Source: a bacterium (GTDB lineage: Bacteria > Eisenbacteria > RBG-16-71-46). Taken from it: 19,635 nucleotides of DNA. The DNA is taken from contig JAYWEM010000125.1 in assembly GCA_043779265.1 (NCBI GenBank), positions 1-19,635 of the forward strand, in the 5' to 3' direction. This document shows, in pieces, positions 2,413 to 14,293 of the stretch. A model generated the notes under the pieces. The model worked only from the letters and a program-made list of their open reading frames with translations, was not told the origin of the DNA and searched no databases. Made by a program: the position numbers and the translations under genes. Numbering within the stretch: position 1 is the first letter of the stretch; each line of letters opens with the position of its first letter.

Positions 2413-5130
2413 TCAGGAGTTCGAAGGTGCCCCTTCGGGCGCGGGCGGCAACTTGCGATCGACGGATTCGATTCGCCACACGCGACGAGCTTCACCCTCA
2501 CCCAACTCGACGGCGTCTCCGATGGCACGTCCGACGAGCGAGCGAGCGATCGCCGCCTGATGCGAGATGACGTTCTCTCCCAGGTGATGTTCGCCATCAC
2601 CGAGGATCCAATAGCTCACGTTGTCGTCTTCGGACACCAACGTGACTTCCGTGCCAAGACCGGCGATGCCCTTCACGAAATCGGTGTCCTCGACGAAGCG
2701 AGCGCGGGAAAGCCGCAGCTGGAGCGCCCCCACGAGATTCTGGTAGTTCGCCTGCTTGTCCTTGGCGGAGTGGTACTCGGCGTTCTCCTTGAGATCGCCG
2801 AGCTCACGCGCGGTCTGGATGGTCTGCGGGATGGTGGTGCGGAGTTCACGCTCCAGCACATCCATCTCAAGATGAAGCTTGTGGAACGTGGCACGAGTCA
2901 TGATAGGGACGTCGAAGGACTCCGCCTGCTCTCCGACCGAGCTGAACAACTTCTCGACGCGGCGCTGACGATGCTCGAGCACGCCGGTCTTCTCGTCCTC
3001 CATGCCGAGACGGGAGATCGCCTCGAGCGTGGGAAACAGGTACCGATCGCTCGAACGCCACTGCCGCAGCAGGACGCGCACCTTGAGACGCGTCTCGTTG
3101 ATCATCGGCACCGGCTTCACGAGGCGCTCGAAATCCCCGCCCGACTCCAGCCAGCGCAGCACCTTCTCCGCCGTCGAGGGCTTCGGGCGCTCCTCGATCA
3201 GCTGCAGCGCGGAGAACAGCAGTCGCCACGCATCCTCGACCGGCGCGGGCGTGACGAACGCCTCCTCGATCAGCCGGAGCGCAGCCGCCGGATACTGAAC
3301 GCAATGATCGAGTAGCACGCGGCGCAGACGAGCGCGGCCCTCGTCGTCGAGCTGCAGTCGGGCCTTCTCCGCTTCATCGCGAACCGCAGCGAACCGCGAG
3401 TCGAGCGCCGAGAGGATCGCCTCCGCATCGACACCGGCGGAGCGCGAGTCGGCCAACAACCCGAGCTGCTCGTCCTCGGTCGAGAGGTCGGAGATCGTCA
3501 GGCCCTGCTCCCACAGGATACGCAGCACTCCCAGCCATTTCTCGCGCATCTCCGGGTACCAGCGCGACTGATAGAGCCCGGCACGAGCGCGATCGGGGCG
3601 CTCGGCGTCCTCGTCGGCGACGAGGCGCTGCACGAAGCGACCGAAGCGGCCCCTCAGCGCCTGCTCGCTCGCGGGATGCTGGGCGAGGAACTTCTTGATG
3701 ACGCCGAGGTTCGTGCGAGCGGGCTTGCGCGGCTCGAACGGCGGCAGCGGGATGGTGTCGTCCTCCGCCTCCTTGGCCGCGCCCTCGGGTGCAAGGCGAT
3801 AGTGCTGCTCGAACGCGCGCGCGTGATCGATGCGCGGGTCCTTCTCGCAGGCGGGCTTGCCCTTGCGCCAGAACGGCGTCCACTCCTTGGCGGGCACCAG
3901 ATGGGCGCTCACCATGAACATCTTGAGTCGGCTGGCATCGGCCTCGCCGCCGAGCGCTTTGAGGGCGCCGACGATCAGCGTGCCGTGTTCCTCGCCGCGA
4001 AGGCGCAGCAGCTCGGCCGGATCCGACAGGCGCAGCAGGCGCACATCATCCTCGAGGATCGGCGCGAGCGTCCGGCGGGCCGCCTGATACGGCATCGTGC
4101 GGCCCTTCTCCTTCACGAAGTCGATGACGACGGTATCCGTGTCATTCGAGACGATCCGCCCGGGGCCGAAGCCGTCATGCAGCACACCACGACCCGGCGC
4201 GAGCGCCGCGATCGAGTCGAAGGCCTCCATCGCCTTCTGCACCGGCACCTCATCGCCGAGGAGACCGCTCTGGACGAGCGCGTCCTCGACGTTCGGCACG
4301 CCAGCACCGGGACCCTGGCGCATCGCGAGTGCGACGGCCCCGCGGAACGGCTCGGCGGCATCGTCGCCCTTGGCGCCGGTTGCGGTGGCGACCACGCGGC
4401 GCAGGGGCTCGAGCGCGGTGCCAGCATGGTTGCTCTTGGCCAGCCCATCCACGGCGACCGCCGCGATCTGTGCCGCTTCCTTCAGCGCACCCTGCGATGC
4501 CGCGATCGGCAGCGCGAGCGCGAGCTGTGTGAGGCCCTCGTGATCGCCGTGCTCCGCAAGCTCGACGGCGGCTTCCTCGAGTTCGCCGAAGCGCTGGTCC
4601 TCGGCGAAGTGCGGGGCCAGCTCCGCCAGCAGGATGCGGCGGTCCTCGCCGCGCGAGGCTTCGCCGAGTCGCTTGGCGAGCTGCATCGCGAGATCGATGT
4701 CATCGGGCATCACCGCCCAGGCGCGCGACAGCGCTTCGATGCGGTCGGGTTCCTTGCCGAGCCCCTCGTGCGCCTGAACCAACAGCTTGGCGGCGGCTTG
4801 CGAGGCGACCAGACCGAGCGCGCGATCGGCGATGGCGGCGAGTGGCTCCCACTTCTTGCCTGCAGCGAGTTTCTGTCCGAGTTGGAGCAGCGTCTGATTC
4901 GCGCGCTCGAGATCGCCGTGCAATGCCGAACACGCCGCGAGCAGATACGAGACACCCCACGGAGCGTCGGCTTCGCGCTGGCGATTGGCCAGCTCCTTGA
5001 TCACCGACTCGATGCGCTTCTCACTCTGCGCATCACCTGCGATGGACTCGAGTTGCTCGCGCGAAGTCGGACTGAGATCGGAGCCGAGATCACCCCGGAG
5101 AACAGACGGCAGGACTTCGCGGACGGGCAT
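2413..5130 (-). CDS. greA: Transcription elongation factor GreA with a long (~740 aa) N-terminal extension
   Basis: The C-terminal ~160 aa is a GreA domain (MTRATFHKL...ARELGDLKENAEYHSAK...ISHQAAIARSLVG) with the acidic D/E tip intact. The N-terminal part is helical (TPR-like) plus an HxxFGxGRI Tudor/CarD-like strand motif. GAGGGA SD upstream. Confidence 0.85.
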   Translation of the reverse strand: MPVREVLPSVLRGDLGSDLSPTSREQLESIAGDAQSEKRIESVIKELANRQREADAPWGVSYLLAACSALHGDLERANQTLLQLGQKLAAGKKWEPLAAIADRALGLVASQAAAKLLVQAHEGLGKEPDRIEALSRAWAVMPDDIDLAMQLAKRLGEASRGEDRRILLAELAPHFAEDQRFGELEEAAVELAEHGDHEGLTQLALALPIAASQGALKEAAQIAAVAVDGLAKSNHAGTALEPLRRVVATATGAKGDDAAEPFRGAVALAMRQGPGAGVPNVEDALVQSGLLGDEVPVQKAMEAFDSIAALAPGRGVLHDGFGPGRIVSNDTDTVVIDFVKEKGRTMPYQAARRTLAPILEDDVRLLRLSDPAELLRLRGEEHGTLIVGALKALGGEADASRLKMFMVSAHLVPAKEWTPFWRKGKPACEKDPRIDHARAFEQHYRLAPEGAAKEAEDDTIPLPPFEPRKPARTNLGVIKKFLAQHPASEQALRGRFGRFVQRLVADEDAERPDRARAGLYQSRWYPEMREKWLGVLRILWEQGLTISDLSTEDEQLGLLADSRSAGVDAEAILSALDSRFAAVRDEAEKARLQLDDEGRARLRRVLLDHCVQYPAAALRLIEEAFVTPAPVEDAWRLLFSALQLIEERPKPSTAEKVLRWLESGGDFERLVKPVPMINETRLKVRVLLRQWRSSDRYLFPTLEAISRLGMEDEKTGVLEHRQRRVEKLFSSVGEQAESFDVPIMTRATFHKLHLEMDVLERELRTTIPQTIQTARELGDLKENAEYHSAKDKQANYQNLVGALQLRLSRARFVEDTDFVKGIAGLGTEVTLVSEDDNVSYWILGDGEHHLGENVISHQAAIARSLVGRAIGDAVELGEGEARRVWRIESVDRKLPPAPEGAPSNS

Positions 5131-7263: not shown

Positions 7264-7497
7264 CGGGGTCGTCCGACTGGCGGGCTGAACGCCGCCAGAT
7301 CGAGCAAGCGCTCTCCCGATATCCCGCGCGGTGCGCTGGGCCACATGTGCCCAGCGACGCGCACACGAACCACCCCCGGGGTCGACTCCAGTCGCCCGGC
7401 AAGGACCCAACCCATGAGACCTCGCCGTCGCCGTGTCCGCACCCCCCGTCCAGTCGACGGTGGTGGTGCCCCCGAGAACCAGAATGAGGCCCCACCG

Positions 7498-8757
7498 ATG
7501 AACGATTCACCTAAGCAGTTCGACGCGCCCACACCCGCATCCGAGAGCAGCGCCGAAGGCGCGCCGTCGGGTGGCGGGGAAGGCGATGGCGGACGCGAAG
7601 GAGGCTCCCGCGAGGGCGCCTTCCGTTACAGCAACAACAATCGCAAGCGCCGTCGGCGCCGTCGCGGCCCGGAGCCGCGCCAAGATGGCCGTGCAGCCAG
7701 CGGCCCGTCGAGCGGTGGCCCGTCCGGAGGTGGCCAGTCCAGCGGCCCCAGCTATCAGGACCGTGGCGATCGCCCCGAACGAGGTGGCCGTCGTGGTCGT
7801 CGCGGCCGCAGCACCGGCGGTGACTCGCCGCGTCCGCAGCGCCGTCGCGGACTCGAGGTGTTGCGCCAGATGCAGAACGTGGGCGCCGCGCTCGATCCGA
7901 CCGAACGCCTGATCCTCGAACTTCCCGCCGGTCAGGGCAGCCCGCCCGATGGCGATCGCATCACCGGCCGCGCGCTCGATCTGATCGCGCCTCTGGGACG
8001 CGGCCAGCGCTGCCTGCTGGTGGCGCCGCCCAAGGCCGGCAAGACGCGCATCCTCCAGTGCATCGCCGCCTCGATCGCGCACAACCACCCGGAGATCAAG
8101 GTGTACGCGCTGCTCGTGGACGAGCGCCCCGAGGAGGTCACCGACTTCAAGCGCAACACGCCGGCCGAGGTGATCGCCGCCTCCAGCGACATGAGCGCTC
8201 GCGAACACATCGAGTGCGCCGAGGAGGCGATGGACCGCGTGGCGCAGGAAGTGATCGACGGCAAGGATGTCGTGCTGCTGCTCGACTCGATCACGCGTCT
8301 GGCGCGCGCTTACAACTCGGCGGCCGGCAACGGTGGTCGCACGATGTCGGGCGGCCTCGACTCCAATGCGATGCAGGCACCGCGCCAGATCTTCGGCTCG
8401 GCCCGCAAGATCGAGAACGGCGGCTCGCTCACGATCATCGGCACCGCGCTGGTCGATACCGGCAGCCGCATGGACCAGATCATCTTCGAGGAGTTCAAGG
8501 GGACCGGTAACTCCGAGGTCTACCTGTCGCGCGAGCTGGCCGAGCGCCGCATCTTCCCGGCGATCGACATCGCCAAGAGCGGCACGCGCAAGGAGGAGAA
8601 GCTCATCGCCCCCGAGCTGCTCGGCACGTTCCAGACCCTGCGCCGCGTGCTGCTCGGCATGCCGCTGCAGGAGTCGATGAGCAAGCTCATCGACCGCCTG
8701 CAGAAGACCCAGACCAACGAGCAGTTCTACCAGTTGGTGCGGGTGGGCGAGAGCTAG
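7498..8757 (+). CDS. rho: Transcription termination factor Rho, atypical (no recognisable N-terminal RNA-binding domain; Arg/Gly-rich disordered N-terminus)
   Basis: Intact ATPase core: DLIAPLGRGQR, Walker A APPKAGKT, DERPEEVTD, Walker B LLLDSITRLARAYN, Q-loop SGGLD, R-loop EEFKGTGN and SGTRKEE. Start chosen at ATG 7498 (GAGG upstream). The ORF is open from 7345. Confidence 0.9.
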   Translation: MNDSPKQFDAPTPASESSAEGAPSGGGEGDGGREGGSREGAFRYSNNNRKRRRRRRGPEPRQDGRAASGPSSGGPSGGGQSSGPSYQDRGDRPERGGRRGRRGRSTGGDSPRPQRRRGLEVLRQMQNVGAALDPTERLILELPAGQGSPPDGDRITGRALDLIAPLGRGQRCLLVAPPKAGKTRILQCIAASIAHNHPEIKVYALLVDERPEEVTDFKRNTPAEVIAASSDMSAREHIECAEEAMDRVAQEVIDGKDVVLLLDSITRLARAYNSAAGNGGRTMSGGLDSNAMQAPRQIFGSARKIENGGSLTIIGTALVDTGSRMDQIIFEEFKGTGNSEVYLSRELAERRIFPAIDIAKSGTRKEEKLIAPELLGTFQTLRRVLLGMPLQESMSKLIDRLQKTQTNEQFYQLVRVGES

Positions 8758-8784: not shown

Positions 8785-9456
8785 TCACTTCTTCAGCCGG
8801 TAGGGGAAATTGCCCGCGACCTTCTTGAAGAGTGACTTCGCCATCGCCTCGGAGGAGTTGGCCATGCCGCCCTTGTCGGTGTGGTCGTAGCTCCACAACA
8901 GGCTGGCGTTCGCTCCGTCGTGCAACGTCATGTTGATGTCGACACGCTCGGTGGAGCCGCTGAAACCCAGCAGCAGGGTCTGTGCGAAGGCGGCCCCCGT
9001 CGAGGTCGGCTTGGACATGCGGATGGAACCGGAGACGAGCGCATCCACCCCGAGCGCTCGGGCCACCTCGTCTTTGGTGTGTGCTCCGAGGCTGTCCATC
9101 GAGATCCCTGCTCGCAGCAGCAGCGTGTTGGTCTGGTCGATGTCCTGGAACTCGACTCGATAACCGTCGGTCGCCGCCCTCGAGAGGAATCGCGCGTACA
9201 TCTGGCGCTGGAACTCGAGTGCCTCGTCGGACTGCATCTTCTCCACCATCTCAGGTGTCGTGTGCTTGGGCAGGTTCTTCGCGGCGATCGTCACGCGGAA
9301 CGGAAGGATCGCGATGGTTCTGTGGTTCGCGCTCAACTGTGCGAATTGGGGGCTGACGAACTGCTGCGCGCCGGCGTGAACCGCCGGGTGCGAGGCGAGC
9401 ATCGCGAACAACGTGAGCGAGTGAATGGCCACAATGCTTCGAGCAGATAGACACAT
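8785..9456 (-). CDS. Exported alpha/beta-fold protein (CsgG/DUF799/GNA1162-like), function unknown
   Basis: Signal-like N-terminus ending VHA-G, with motifs TIAILPF, ALGVDALVSGSI and LLWSY. The start is uncertain (the ORF is open to 9552). A TATGCT -10 lies on the minus strand at 9493-9498. Confidence 0.65.
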   Translation of the reverse strand: MCLSARSIVAIHSLTLFAMLASHPAVHAGAQQFVSPQFAQLSANHRTIAILPFRVTIAAKNLPKHTTPEMVEKMQSDEALEFQRQMYARFLSRAATDGYRVEFQDIDQTNTLLLRAGISMDSLGAHTKDEVARALGVDALVSGSIRMSKPTSTGAAFAQTLLLGFSGSTERVDINMTLHDGANASLLWSYDHTDKGGMANSSEAMAKSLFKKVAGNFPYRLKK

Positions 9457-9548
9457 CGGAGACTTCCGGTTCGCGACGGCGTCGGGGTCGCGAGCATAGG
9501 CTCGTCCCTCGCAACCGGCCAGCGCCAGGGACCGGGCAGCGCGCGCCC

Positions 9549-11033
9549 TCAAATGTCCAACTCCGGCTGGCCGCGGTGCCTGGGCCTCCGGGGCGTCGGA
9601 CGCGAACCCGGCGGCGGTTCACGCAGGTGCAGATACGCCGCGTAGTGCACGAGCGATTCGAGGTTCTCCTCGGGCAGCACGAGCAGCGCGTCCACGAATC
9701 GCGCGAGCGGCGTCGAGAGCGCCACGAGGCGCGAAAGCACCCAGGCGACCTCGGCCGGACGCCTTCCCTGCTCGAACTGCTTCCATGACAGCAGTCGCGA
9801 GCTGCGCAGGTGCTGGAACTGCACGCGCGGCTTCAGTTCCTCGATGGCGCGCTGCGCATCCTCGGCACTGAAGTGCACCGGGGACTCGGCTGCCGGTGGC
9901 GGTGGCAACGCGCCGCCGTAGGCCGCGCGACGCAGCACATCGACGCCGATGGCGGGGCAGGCGCGGCCGCCGGCCTCGGCCTCGCTGAGCAGCTGGAGTT
10001 GGGCGGTCCCTTCGACCGCCTCGCGTTGTACACGCACGCCGGCCACTCCCTTCTCGACCAGCTCCGGCAGTTGCCAGGCGATCGGCGAGAGCACCTTCGC
10101 GAGCAGCCGCGTCAGGCCACGCGCACCGGTCCCGCCCTCATGCGCGCGCTGCGCCAGCGCCTCGCCGGCGCCATCCGTCAGCTCGAGGCGCAACCCATGG
10201 CGCTCGAAGTGGTGCCGCTCGAGACTCAGCGGCGAACCCTCGACGTCGCCGAGGATGCGCACCAGGTCGGGGACCTCGAGTGGTTCGACCACGGAGATCG
10301 TGGCGAAGCGCCCGACCAGTTCGGGGATCAGGCCGAAGCGCACGAGGTCGTCGGTCCCGGCGATGCGATAGGCCTCGGCATCATCCAGTGCGCCCTGGGG
10401 CGAGCCTGCGACACCGCCGAAACCGAGCGTTGCCCCGCGCCGGCTCCTGGCGCGCTCGCGCATCATCGCGGGCAGCCCGGCGAAGGCGCCGGCGAACACG
10501 AACAGCACGCGCGAACTGTCCATCTCGACGGTCGTCTCGCCGCGCTTCCAGCGCACGGGGATGCCATCGAGCAGCGTGAGCAGGGCGTTCTGGACGCCCT
10601 CGCCCGACACATCGCGCCCGACATCGGTGGCGCGGCGCAGCTTGTCGACCTCATCCAGGAAGATGATGCCGCGCTGCGCCTTGGCGAGGTCGCCACCCGC
10701 TGCGAGCACGAGCGAGGCGAACAGGCTGTCGACGCTCTCGCCCATGTAGCCGACTTCGGAAAGGCTGGTGGCCGCGCAGATGGCGACCGGGACGCCGAGG
10801 ATGTCGGCGAGTGTGCGGACGAGATAGGTCTTGCCGCTGCCGGTCGGCCCCAAGAGCAGCGCGTGATGCCGCCCTGCGCGCATGCCGGGGTCCGCAGCGC
10901 GCTGCGTCTGATCCAGGTAGTGGCGATAGACCGCGGTCGCGAGTTCTCGCTTGGCGCGAGCCTGACCGACGGCGCGTCGGTCGAGTTGATGCACGATCTC
11001 GGAGGGTACGGGGAGTCGGTCGAGGGCGACCAT
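9549..11033 (-). CDS. ClpX-like AAA+ ATPase lacking the N-terminal Zn-binding domain, with a C-terminal extension (494 aa)
   Basis: PSEIVHQLDRRAVGQARAK, Walker A GPTGSGKT, pore-1 GYMG, Walker B IIFLDEVDK, pore-2 RDVSGEGVQ, LGF loop, FGLIPELVGR and GARGL. ATG 11033 has an AAGGAG SD. An alternative GTG start lies at 11108. Confidence 0.88.
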   Translation of the reverse strand: MVALDRLPVPSEIVHQLDRRAVGQARAKRELATAVYRHYLDQTQRAADPGMRAGRHHALLLGPTGSGKTYLVRTLADILGVPVAICAATSLSEVGYMGESVDSLFASLVLAAGGDLAKAQRGIIFLDEVDKLRRATDVGRDVSGEGVQNALLTLLDGIPVRWKRGETTVEMDSSRVLFVFAGAFAGLPAMMRERARSRRGATLGFGGVAGSPQGALDDAEAYRIAGTDDLVRFGLIPELVGRFATISVVEPLEVPDLVRILGDVEGSPLSLERHHFERHGLRLELTDGAGEALAQRAHEGGTGARGLTRLLAKVLSPIAWQLPELVEKGVAGVRVQREAVEGTAQLQLLSEAEAGGRACPAIGVDVLRRAAYGGALPPPPAAESPVHFSAEDAQRAIEELKPRVQFQHLRSSRLLSWKQFEQGRRPAEVAWVLSRLVALSTPLARFVDALLVLPEENLESLVHYAAYLHLREPPPGSRPTPRRPRHRGQPELDI

Positions 11034-11196
11034 CGGGAGGTCTCCTTCGGAGCGGGGCGGATGTTCGTGGGGTGCGGGGATGCGCGCGAGAGAGGCGATG
11101 CGCGCCACTCCATCTACGACGAGTTCGCGATGTGCGTCGAGACAATTCGTGCAGCGCGTTGTGCGCGTGATGATTGTCGAGCGTCTCGCGAAGTCG

Positions 11197-11237
11197 ATGT
11201 TCGCCCTTGACGACGAATCGTCATGTTGCCCTTGACG
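11197..11237. repeat. Direct repeat ATGTT(C)GCCCTTGACG x2
   Basis: GCCCTTGACG occurs at 11203-11212 and 11228-11237 (25-bp period), upstream of the ClpX-like gene. Confidence 0.6.
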
Positions 11238-11240
11238 CGA

Positions 11241-11471
11241 TCACTCCGAATCTGATTCAGCGCCCCGCTCGTGCGCCTCGCGTTGCAGGCGCGCATGGTG
11301 CGCCAGCTGCGCGATGAGATGCGTCTTACCGCTCGGCGACAGGAAAGCCCGCGACTGGTGCGATGTTCCGAGGAACTCGCTCGCATCGCCCGAGCGCTGC
11401 CGCTGCTCGATCATGCGGTCCAAGTGACGGATGATCTCGGCCGGAGTCGGTGGCGATTCGCGATCGCTCAT
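11241..11471 (-). CDS. 76-aa mini-ORF homologous to the N-terminal part of the ClpX AAA+ domain (small protein or gene remnant)
   Basis: Its ATG overlaps the kinase stop (ATGA, 11471-11468). Segments PPTPAEIIRHLDR, IEQRQRSGD and SGKTHLIAQLAH align in order with PVPSEIVHQLDR, LDQTQRAAD and SGKTYLVRTLAD of the downstream ClpX-like gene. Confidence 0.6.
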   Translation of the reverse strand: MSDRESPPTPAEIIRHLDRMIEQRQRSGDASEFLGTSHQSRAFLSPSGKTHLIAQLAHHARLQREAHERGAESDSE

Positions 11472-14293
11472 CCCCGACCGGCCGCGAGTGCCGCGCGCCA
11501 CTTGGCGACCTCCGTCGGCTTGCGCCAGTCCTCGTAGAGCTGGATCAGTGCCTGCGTCGCCTTGAGGGCATCCGGGTCACGGGCACCACGCGCTTCGAGC
11601 GCGGCCTTCCGCGCCGAGAGCAACAGGGCCTCGGCCTCGAGCCACGACGAGGCCAGGCGTTTCGCCCGCAGGATGTCCGCGAGCCCCAACTGCGCGTCGA
11701 GCGTGCCGCGACCGCTCTTGCCCTGGGACTCCAAACGGATCGACAGCCCCTCACGCGCCAGCTTCTCCGCTTCTCCCATGCGGCGCTGCTGGATGCGAAG
11801 GCTGGAGAAGTCCCGGTACGCCGCGGCGAGATCGGGGTGGCGAGGGCCCAGTTTGGACTTGATGATGCCGAGCCCGGATTCGAACGCGGCCTGGGACTCG
11901 CGCAGCTTGCCGGCGCGCGCATAGGCCGGAGCGATGGCCAGCCACGTCCGGCCAACCGCCTCGCTCTGGGGTCCGAGCCCCTGTTGCCGGATGGCGAGCA
12001 CCTGCTTCATCACCTCCAGGCTCTGCTCGGCTCGACCGGTCCGATAAAGCAGCGCTCCCTGATTCTCGAGCGCGCGCGCCACCAGCGGATGGTTGTCCCC
12101 GAGGTTGCGGCGGCGGATGGCCACGGCTTCGCTGTACAGCGAGTCGGCGCTGGCCACATCGCCCATGCGCGCGCGGTTGGCAGCGAGCTCCTCGAGCGCC
12201 TCGGAGCTCTCGAGCCCGCGATCGCCCGAACGGGCCGTCAACTGGATGACACTGGCGAGCAACAGCGAATCGGCCCCGGCGTAGTTCTCCTTCCAGTTGG
12301 CTTCGATGTAAGCCCGGGTGCGCATGATCGCCGGAGTGGCCGTGCTGACCGGGCCCTCGCCGCGCCGAACCAACCGCATCGCCGCGAGCGACAGCGTATC
12401 GGCCTCCGCGTAGCGGCCCTGCCGCGCCAGGGAAGCCGCCACTTCGTTCATGATGAGCGCCGATGTCTCGTGCTGCTTCCCGCCCGACTGTGCCTCGCTG
12501 GCCAGCGCTGAGCGGAACTGCTGCTCGGCGACTCCGTAGTTCGCGGTCTGGCTCAGGACCCGTCCGAGGTTGCGCTGAAGTCCGGCGACCAGATCCATTC
12601 GCGGGCTGGGTCCCTCGCCCAACCGCTCGATGCCCACGCGCAACAGGCTCTCGGCTTCGGCGTACTTGCCGACGCCGGCGAGCGCGGAGGCGACGGTGCC
12701 TCGAATCGCGTAGTCGACCTCGGGGTCGCTGCCCGCCCATTTGCCGATGCGCGTCTGCGCCTGCTCGAGAGCAGCGTCGAGCGTCACCTTGCCGCCCCCG
12801 CCCGACCACGGGTCGGCGGTGGTCAGCATGTCCTCCAGGAAGCGGCTGATGGCACCGGCCTTGGCGGCCTCGAGCCTCGCCAGCGACTGGCTCACTTCCG
12901 CCGCGGTCCGCGCGCGCACCGCTCCCGTGCGTTCCCGCACCGCGGTGGCCTGTTGCAGTTCGGCCTCGGCGCGGCGTTCCTCGGCCATGGCGCGTGCTTC
13001 ATCCGCCTCCCGGCTGCGCGAGAGCGCCAGCGCCTCGGCGTACTCGGCGCGCGCCATACGCGAAGTCGCGAGCGCCTCGGCGCGGTTGGCGCGCATCGCC
13101 TCTCGCGTGCTGACCACGACTCCCGCCAGCAACACGACGAACGTCGCCGCCACGCCGAACACCAGCGCGCGGTTCCGGGCCGCGAACTTCTGGAACTGGT
13201 AGAGCGTGCTCGGTGGCCGTGCCAGAATGGGCTGCGACGAGAGATAGCGTTCCACATCATCGGCCATGGCTGCCGCGCTCGAATAGCGCCGCTCCGCGTC
13301 CTTCTCGAGCGCCTTGCCCACCAGTGTCTCGATGTCCGGATCGAGGCGGCGCGAGCCGCTCATCGTCAGGCGCAGCGAACGCGGCGGCTGCTCGCAGATG
13401 ACGCGCACCGCTTCGAGCAGCGAGGTGCGGCTCACGTCGTAGGGCTTCGCATTCGACAGCATCTCGTAGAGGACCACGCCCAGTGCATAGACGTCGGTGC
13501 GCAGATCGATGGCATCCACGTTCCCGCGTGCCTGCTCGGGGGACATGTACGGCAAGGTGCCCTTGATGACCCCGACCTCGGTGACCTGCGTCGCCTGCAC
13601 GTCACTCTCGGTGATGCGGGCCAGGCCGAAGTCCAGGATCTTGACGTCCGGAAGCCGCGCGCCCGAGAGCGTGTTGATGCTGGTCTCGCTGTTCGCCTCG
13701 CGCGAGATGATGATGTTGGAGGGCTTGAGGTCGCGGTGGATCACGCCGCGCTGGTGCGCGTAGTGGACCGCCTCCGCGATGCGCCGGAACAACCCGAGAC
13801 GGAAGCGCACCTCGTCGGAAGTCATGACCCGTGTCCGCCGGGCGAGGAACACATCGAGATGATCGCCCCGCACCAGTTCCATCGCGAAGAAGTACTGGCC
13901 CTCGTTGGTGCGGCCGGACTCGTAGATGCCCCCGATGTTGGGATGGCGCAGGCGCGCCAGCGTCTCGACCTCACGTCGGAACGCGCGGACCGTGGCCTCA
14001 TCGATCACTCGCCCGCCGCGAACGACTTTGAGCGCGACGAGTCGGCGCGGAAACGGCTGCTCGGCCTCGTACACGATGCCCATGCCGCCCTCGCCCAACT
14101 TGGAGAGAATGCGATATCCGCCGATCGAGTCAGGAAGCTCCTCCGCGTCCGCCGAGCGCTCCGCGCGATCATGCTCGCTGCGTCCTCGGTCAGGGCCCGC
14201 GATGGTCGCGGCATCTTCCATGCTGATGCCGGATCCCGAATCGGGAGGCGACGGCGGCACGCTGCTGCCTCTGGCGATGGGGTCGTCGGACAA
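11468..14293 (-). CDS. Hanks-type Ser/Thr protein kinase with TM helix, coiled coil and TPR array
   Basis: Kinase motifs LGEGGMGIVY, VALK, HRDLKPSN, DFGLA and GTLPYMSPEQ. TM helix ALVFGVAATFVVLLAGVVVST, an Ala/Arg/Glu-rich coiled coil, and ~42-aa TPR_10/12-like repeats (LGDNHPLVARALENQG, LGPRHPDLAAAYRDFS). The start is uncertain: TTG 14293 after GAGGA, while the ORF is open to GTG 14347. Confidence 0.9.
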   Translation of the reverse strand: MSDDPIARGSSVPPSPPDSGSGISMEDAATIAGPDRGRSEHDRAERSADAEELPDSIGGYRILSKLGEGGMGIVYEAEQPFPRRLVALKVVRGGRVIDEATVRAFRREVETLARLRHPNIGGIYESGRTNEGQYFFAMELVRGDHLDVFLARRTRVMTSDEVRFRLGLFRRIAEAVHYAHQRGVIHRDLKPSNIIISREANSETSINTLSGARLPDVKILDFGLARITESDVQATQVTEVGVIKGTLPYMSPEQARGNVDAIDLRTDVYALGVVLYEMLSNAKPYDVSRTSLLEAVRVICEQPPRSLRLTMSGSRRLDPDIETLVGKALEKDAERRYSSAAAMADDVERYLSSQPILARPPSTLYQFQKFAARNRALVFGVAATFVVLLAGVVVSTREAMRANRAEALATSRMARAEYAEALALSRSREADEARAMAEERRAEAELQQATAVRERTGAVRARTAAEVSQSLARLEAAKAGAISRFLEDMLTTADPWSGGGGKVTLDAALEQAQTRIGKWAGSDPEVDYAIRGTVASALAGVGKYAEAESLLRVGIERLGEGPSPRMDLVAGLQRNLGRVLSQTANYGVAEQQFRSALASEAQSGGKQHETSALIMNEVAASLARQGRYAEADTLSLAAMRLVRRGEGPVSTATPAIMRTRAYIEANWKENYAGADSLLLASVIQLTARSGDRGLESSEALEELAANRARMGDVASADSLYSEAVAIRRRNLGDNHPLVARALENQGALLYRTGRAEQSLEVMKQVLAIRQQGLGPQSEAVGRTWLAIAPAYARAGKLRESQAAFESGLGIIKSKLGPRHPDLAAAYRDFSSLRIQQRRMGEAEKLAREGLSIRLESQGKSGRGTLDAQLGLADILRAKRLASSWLEAEALLLSARKAALEARGARDPDALKATQALIQLYEDWRKPTEVAKWRAALAAGRG

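Follow-up and report, generated by a model that had tools for sequence, protein, structure and literature searches.

Known systems with which the 76-aa ORF can be compared

In Synechocystis PCC 6803, AcnSP is the product of a small ORF that arose when the 5' part of an enzyme gene was duplicated, and is a catalytically dead N-terminal fragment that alters the kinetics of its parent (PMC7336809). AcnSP is 81% identical to its parent, is located on a plasmid and has been shown to be expressed. It represents the closest tested precedent for the 76-aa ORF analysed here, which likewise encodes a catalytically dead N-terminal fragment generated by partial 5' duplication. Unlike AcnSP, the 76-aa ORF is only ~29% identical to its parent, is internally deleted, adjoins the parent gene and derives from an AAA+ ring protein. 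More generally, MicroProteins are small proteins related to a larger multidomain protein and defined by parent binding and regulation (PMC7534434). The 76-aa ORF resembles them in being small, related to a larger protein and possibly reduced to an interaction surface.

Neighbouring subunits of ClpX pack as a rigid body, the large domain of one on the small domain of the next (PMC12383707). Within the large AAA+ domain of ClpX (TIGR00382 / PRK05342), the homology of the 76-aa ORF covers the first helix and the helix that follows the P-loop; unlike ClpX, the ATPase encoded next to the ORF has an extra domain at its C-terminus and no zinc-binding domain. Among the top literature matches, no microprotein derived from an AAA+ protease ATPase was found. 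Pseudogene remnants of partial duplications are characterised by patchy occurrence, poor codon usage and truncation in close strains. The family of the 76-aa ORF shares all three features, but differs from such remnants in that two copies are open and in register at high divergence.

The locus

The window, which is the whole stretch of 19,635 nucleotides that was analysed, comes from a bacterium of the Eisenbacteria and contains the 76-aa ORF between a Ser/Thr kinase-TPR gene and a gene for a ClpX-like ATPase (Table 1). Translated from 11471 to 11241 on the reverse strand, the ORF is open and consists of 76 residues followed by TGA, with its ATG in exact register with Met1 of the ClpX-like parent, whose gene lies downstream after 207 nt. 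It is a short open ORF from part of a larger protein, as expected of a microprotein. The stops or frameshifts that would mark a pseudogene are absent from the homologous stretch, both here and in a second copy, P0124, whereas the copy in the sister genome G002 is truncated. Gene callers differ on the start, with 76 aa in Logan and 86 aa from a GTG at 11501 in NCBI and ENA.

The sequencing runs X1 and X2, which may be the source sample, match positions 9000-13740 without differences; the small-share runs X3 and X4 were left out of this region comparison, and the runs listed for the region include no RNA run. The small ORFs had no match in Pfam, NCBIfam, PADLOC or PHROGs, the ESM Atlas gave no usable match for the 76-aa ORF or P0124, and tblastn with the small ORF against plasmids returned nothing. 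The codon score of the 76-aa ORF is 0.10, against a coding mean of 0.49; an equally low score is found in only 3% of coding chunks, and the score exceeds that of 88% of stop-free off-frame chunks.

Table 1. Positions of the features discussed in the text
Feature	Coordinates	Strand	Remarks
ClpX-like AAA+ paralogue, 494 aa	9549..11033	(-)	Walker A/B intact, LGF loop, extra helical C-terminal domain
Ribosome-binding site GAAGGAG of the ClpX-like gene	11042..11048	(-)	Also in relatives
Conserved non-coding block	11109..11240	(-)	82% over 79 nt to G002
76-aa ORF	11241..11471	(-)	Degenerate copy of ClpX-like paralogue residues 1-76
PSGKTHL, broken Walker A remnant	11316..11336	(-)	Common to the 76-aa ORF, P0124 and the G002 ORF
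Block 1, PTPAEIIRHLDR, residues 8-19	11415..11450	(-)	First helix of the large AAA+ domain, the best preserved stretch; PSSM top rank
ATGA start/stop overlap	11468..11471	(-)	76-aa ORF with the kinase-TPR gene
Ser/Thr kinase-TPR gene	11468..14221	(-)	Start codon inferred

Homology to the ClpX-like neighbour

The sequence-only reading had recognised three colinear blocks shared with the neighbouring ATPase, the loss of a box II segment of ~19 aa and a collapsed P-loop, and all of these observations were borne out. A recount against the neighbour gave 7/12, 4/9 and 7/12 identities for the three blocks, and BLASTP placed a single 19-residue gap at the box II segment (pairwise E=5e-5). The first Gly of GxxxxGK is lost whichever register is used, the change being either the loss of two residues or, when read in the gapless register of BLAST, a set of substitutions. 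The shuffle test proposed beforehand also came out in favour of the resemblance, with a local score of 64 against the neighbour that none of 10,000 shuffles reached, whichever of the three gap settings was used. Of 39,513 stop-free genome segments, 20,000 were sampled, and 7 of these matched the score, one being the parent and the others mostly P-loop proteins, while a genome-wide tblastn with the 76-aa ORF by itself was not significant (E=0.13).

A PSSM built from 119 homologues, with the neighbour left out, ranked block 1 first of 6,852,362 six-frame genome positions with 37.0 bits, ahead of the neighbour (26.1) and the next position (17.0). Block 3 came eleventh in this ranking, and the match of block 2 is weak. 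Block 1 is identical at 10 of its 12 residues to the ClpX-like protein of G002, compared to 7/12 for its own neighbour, and coincides with a 25-nt DNA repeat of 76% identity and a spacing of 438 nt. As judged from these alignments, the homology of the 76-aa ORF to the ClpX-like family is real.

The ORF aligns to parent residues 1-19 and 39-76 only, and is devoid of box II, Walker A, Walker B, the pore loops, the IGF loop and the small domain. No GxxxxGK[ST] motif is present: counting back from GK, G62, which is invariant in a 120-sequence alignment, is replaced by Phe in the 76-aa ORF and by Trp in P0124, and G65 is lost too. The product would be unable to bind ATP. The structure model of the 76-aa ORF presents helices at residues 10-26 and 46-74 without a packed fold (pTM 0.32), which correspond to helices 10-20 and 68-79 in the model of the parent; block 1 is thus helical in both models.

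Related copies and the age of the duplicate

A two-ORF profile searched against 1.84 billion representatives retrieved four proteins, namely the 76-aa ORF itself, P0124 (87 aa) and two false matches, P0125 and P0126, which were rejected as family members for being repetitive proteins. No further copies were found in 5.8 billion proteins, in the 1.84 billion representatives or in 206 phylum genomes. The unpublished genome G026 underlies none of the conclusions drawn here. In these genomes, the best outside matches of the profile were the N-termini of the ClpX paralogue family, and the matches in G189 and G130 were discarded as stop-containing and devoid of the 7-mer PSGKTHL. Viral contigs yielded 24 pattern matches, none of which was confirmed.

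With at most one mismatch, PSGKTHL occurs a single time in the window's genome and, among 185 loci that include 51 from a metagenome scan and 8 from a genome scan, it is found only in the loci of this genome and on the G002 contig. Neither the 7-mer nor the collapsed P-loop is present in any of 120 parent-family proteins, and an exact 7-residue match to the 76-aa ORF was seen in 1 of 15,388 control tiles. In G002, the 7-mer is encoded within a 40-codon ORF located just downstream of the conserved non-coding block, with silent differences from the 76-aa ORF in 4 of the 7 codons, including an AGC/TCG serine. The alignment between these two ORFs scores modestly, 39 of 6,000 random windows doing as well. 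Read in antisense, the shared block starts with ATG and has a few identical residues, a reading that was rejected on account of its rare TTA/AGA codons and of the serine swap, which is silent in the sense frame.

P0124 equals the G002 ORF at 32 of the last 33 residues of the latter and additionally possesses the N-terminal half, which has been lost in G002, where just the C-terminal 40 codons are kept. Compared as a whole, P0124 and the 76-aa ORF score above all of 10,000 shuffles (0/10,000), whereas their N-terminal halves alone are matched by 209 of 10,000; identity between copies is 31-34% overall. Over the stretch between Met1 and residue 76, P0124 is also colinear with the ATPase encoded in the window, apart from gaps of 1 and 2 residues (score 57, 11/5,000 shuffles), and it resembles three other parents more weakly (35, 619 and 1,855 of 5,000 shuffles, the last two not significant). 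The 19-residue deletion is confined to this genome and is not seen in P0124. The orthologue check set beforehand therefore gave a divided answer, since P0124 is a second, full-length copy in which the P-loop is broken in the same way, but in a near-identical strain the N-terminal half is gone.

The presence of the same P-loop lesion in P0124 and in the G002 copy implies that the lesion is older than the split of the lineages, and a second copy with the same dead Walker A, absent from 120 parents, places one ancestral partial duplicate behind all three copies. At least 30 of 120 homologues outscore the neighbour against the 76-aa ORF (best 81 vs 64), and 59-69% of the silent sites of block 1 have changed, which is near saturation. 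The earlier proposal of either a decayed tandem duplicate or a retained microprotein thus stands with regard to the derivation from a ClpX-like gene, and both of its options are live, but the ORF is not a young duplicate of the present neighbour, given the higher-scoring homologues. From the sequence comparisons, it is an old partial duplicate of a ClpX-like paralogue gene.

The history that emerges begins in an ancestor of this genus, where the 5' ~76 codons of a ClpX-like paralogue gene were duplicated, possibly together with promoter and leader. Walker A was lost early, after which the lineages rearranged the copy. In the present lineage, a further 19 residues were lost and the kinase-TPR gene came to lie upstream, where it would have replaced the first promoter; the G002 lineage would have lost other parts.

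The kinase junction and the conserved non-coding block

The ATG of the 76-aa ORF overlaps the TGA of the kinase-TPR ORF that ends at 11468, in agreement with the start at the kinase stop that had been noted originally. Such an ATGA follows 210 of the 1,033 TGA-ending long ORFs of this genome. On either side of this locus, the G002 sequence runs colinear with the window but lacks the kinase-TPR gene in between, and the gene is a probable insertion at this locus relative to G002. Kinase-TPR orthologues are found in 11 other genomes of 206. None of the 11 is followed by the ORF or by a ClpX-like gene within a flank of at most 1.5 kb (~0.3 and ~0.8 kb for two of them), and 10 of the 11 have a C-terminal tail that is 5-9 residues longer. 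The argument of the sequence-only reading that the in-frame deletions and the ATGA favour expression is consequently weaker than claimed, as the deletion is absent from P0124 and the coupling from all 11 kinase orthologues. From this comparison, the ATGA coupling is a local arrangement that would permit translation without showing selection.

The C-terminal 410 aa of the kinase-TPR protein are 83% identical to a copy in another genus (G044). The gene was not found in two genomes of the same genus (58% and 82% complete) and its neighbours differ in every genome, which suggests that it is mobile.

With regard to the conserved non-coding block, a DNA search of 88 other family genomes gave G002 as the only strong match (L002, 1176-1311). 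The block contains a 10-nt direct repeat, 25 nt apart, a GACAAT/ATTGTC inverted repeat and a TTGTCT located 23 nt before TAGATG; relatives present TTGACT 23 nt before AAGAAT at the same distance from the ClpX-like start. A sigma-70 promoter and terminator scan returned none, Rfam had no match for the block, and its fold z-scores, from -0.5 to +1.0, are nothing unusual. On its sequence features, the block is probably a promoter or regulatory region with an operator of the ClpX-like gene. In the sister genus (L051, L053, L054, L003, L103-L106), DnaA-box-like 9-mers (TTATCCACA and variants) are located ~120-150 nt upstream of the ClpX-like start; such 9-mers were not seen in the window.

Selection or decay

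Ancestral residues are retained by the 76-aa ORF in 13 of 24 family-conserved columns against 4 of 24 variable ones (p=0.007) and, with a stricter ancestor, in 11 of 21 against 3 of 18 (p=0.022); both copies keep 11 of 45 columns where 7.2 are expected (p=0.019). These column tests are biased upward, the blocks having been first noticed for their kept conserved motifs. In P0124, conserved columns are not favoured (12/34 vs 10/29, p=0.58), and this copy decays evenly. Block 1 compared to the G002 parent has a pS of 0.69 and a pN of 0.11 over 12 codons, a block dN/dS that, like the others, covers 7-12 codons picked post hoc. For the single pair formed by the 76-aa ORF and the G002 ORF, dN/dS is ~0.6 when all 34 codons are counted and ~0.9 when the 7-mer is left out, compared to 0.44 for the ClpX-like parent and 0.26 for the divergent kinase. 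In neutral simulations, which start from a proxy ancestor and use assumed rates, two intact copies with the shared 7-mer were obtained in no more than 0.4% of the runs (3,000 for each setting) when indels were on, and in 3.8% without indels at the lowest divergence. At divergence 0.46-0.64, the shared 7-mer alone was obtained in 3-27% of the runs.

Weighed together, these results bring a constrained, translated microprotein to just below an even chance. The 76-aa copy would then still be translated here, by re-initiation at the kinase stop, and be subject to weak protein-level selection. A sizeable probability, though clearly below one half, has to be granted to a neutral remnant, that is, an old partial duplicate which decays in both lineages and whose translation is incidental, the frame being open as stops are rare at 68% GC and the ATGA being a by-product of the kinase junction. 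The even decay of P0124, the loss of half of the copy in G002, the low identity between copies, the poor codon score and the total of only three copies all fit such decay, as does the longer tail of most kinase orthologues, as if this kinase was cut at the junction; furthermore, one copy stays intact in 8-37% of the neutral runs at divergence 0.46-0.64. Neutral decay accounts less readily for two copies that are open and in register from the parent's Met1, for a 7-mer kept despite four silent codon changes and for the enrichment of conserved columns in the 76-aa ORF. Bacterial pseudogenes are, moreover, usually deleted before orthologue dS reaches 0.46-0.64.

The remaining explanations fare worse. 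It is improbable that the element acts in cis, as a leader peptide or as a DNA or RNA site tuning the expression of the ClpX-like gene: the G002 40-codon ORF does form part of the leader, with the promoter-like block before it and the ribosome-binding site after it, and the 7-mer is the only strongly shared part, but in the window the ORF lies upstream of the promoter-like block, so that the position is not kept, the differences are silent in the sense frame, and there is no RNA family or stable fold. Read-through into an N-terminally extended ATPase is a very improbable explanation. The ORF and the ClpX-like gene share one frame, with 438 nt or 146 codons from ATG to ATG, interrupted by a single stop (TGA) that is followed by 69 open codons; however, these codons score as non-coding (-0.18) and contain a strong ribosome-binding site as well as the conserved promoter-like block, and the G002 block is in a different frame relative to the ATPase. 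The lack of matches in Pfam, NCBIfam, PHROG and PADLOC and the tblastn result would be expected of a spurious GC-rich ORF, but a chance resemblance is scarcely credible, since the rank in the PSSM scan and the existence of P0124 refute it.

Possible action on the parent ring

If the microprotein reading holds, the two helices of the large AAA+ domain that are kept would make binding of the first helix to the surface of the parent ATPase its most likely action. The peptide would dampen assembly or activity of the parent ring. In E. coli ClpX, first-helix residues were reportedly cross-linked to the small domain of the neighbouring subunit; if this is right, the best-kept block would be an interface helix, and the peptide could cap a subunit. 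By analogy with ClpX, docking on the parent through the first helix with this dampening effect is a speculative and rather unlikely proposal, and it is equally doubtful that an ATP-blind two-helix fragment at the subunit interface of the ClpX paralogue blocks or tunes ring closure in a manner tied to kinase-TPR expression. A complex prediction with the 76-aa ORF and parent residues 1-345 gave a score of 0.01 (mark 0.32) and was used neither for nor against binding.

Were the peptide expressed and able to bind, a ClpX-type ring would be inhibited or tuned in nature by a piece of its own sequence, and the birth of a microprotein would have been caught at three stages (full-length, internally deleted and truncated). 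A remnant would represent an ordinary trace of local duplication and kinase insertion.

The ClpX-like paralogue and other genes in the window

Residues 6-345 of the ClpX-like neighbour align to solved ClpX chains. Nevertheless, the protein scores below both curated NCBIfam cut-offs for ClpX (274<359 and 252<371) and thus does not qualify as an equivalog; it has no N-terminal zinc-binding domain, its profile match beginning at position 58-63. Paralogues of this kind are patchy, being present in 22 of 206 phylum genomes including this one (alignment profile, E<=1.7e-119), and the closest named homologues belong to Candidatus Eisenbacteria. The paralogue is fast-evolving, with 309/487 residues identical to G002 and a dN/dS of 0.44, compared to 715/888 and 0.26 for the divergent kinase. 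Its extra C-terminal domain (residues ~385-475; 9549-9900 (-)) has no Pfam match, is strongly conserved in more distant homologues and is missing in a shorter subgroup of ~410 aa.

Canonical clpX and clpP were not found in this assembly. The gene that precedes clpP-clpX in a relative is matched at a contig edge (G000 contig C31, last 130 nt), and because this match ends at the edge, the missing canonical clpP-clpX cluster is probably an assembly gap.

Elsewhere in the window, a Rho-like ATPase at 7345-8757 (+) has a long low-complexity N-terminal region, and Pfam gives the ATPase domain only. Additionally, a 905-aa protein at 2413-5130 (-) carries GreA/GreB domains only at its C-terminal end.
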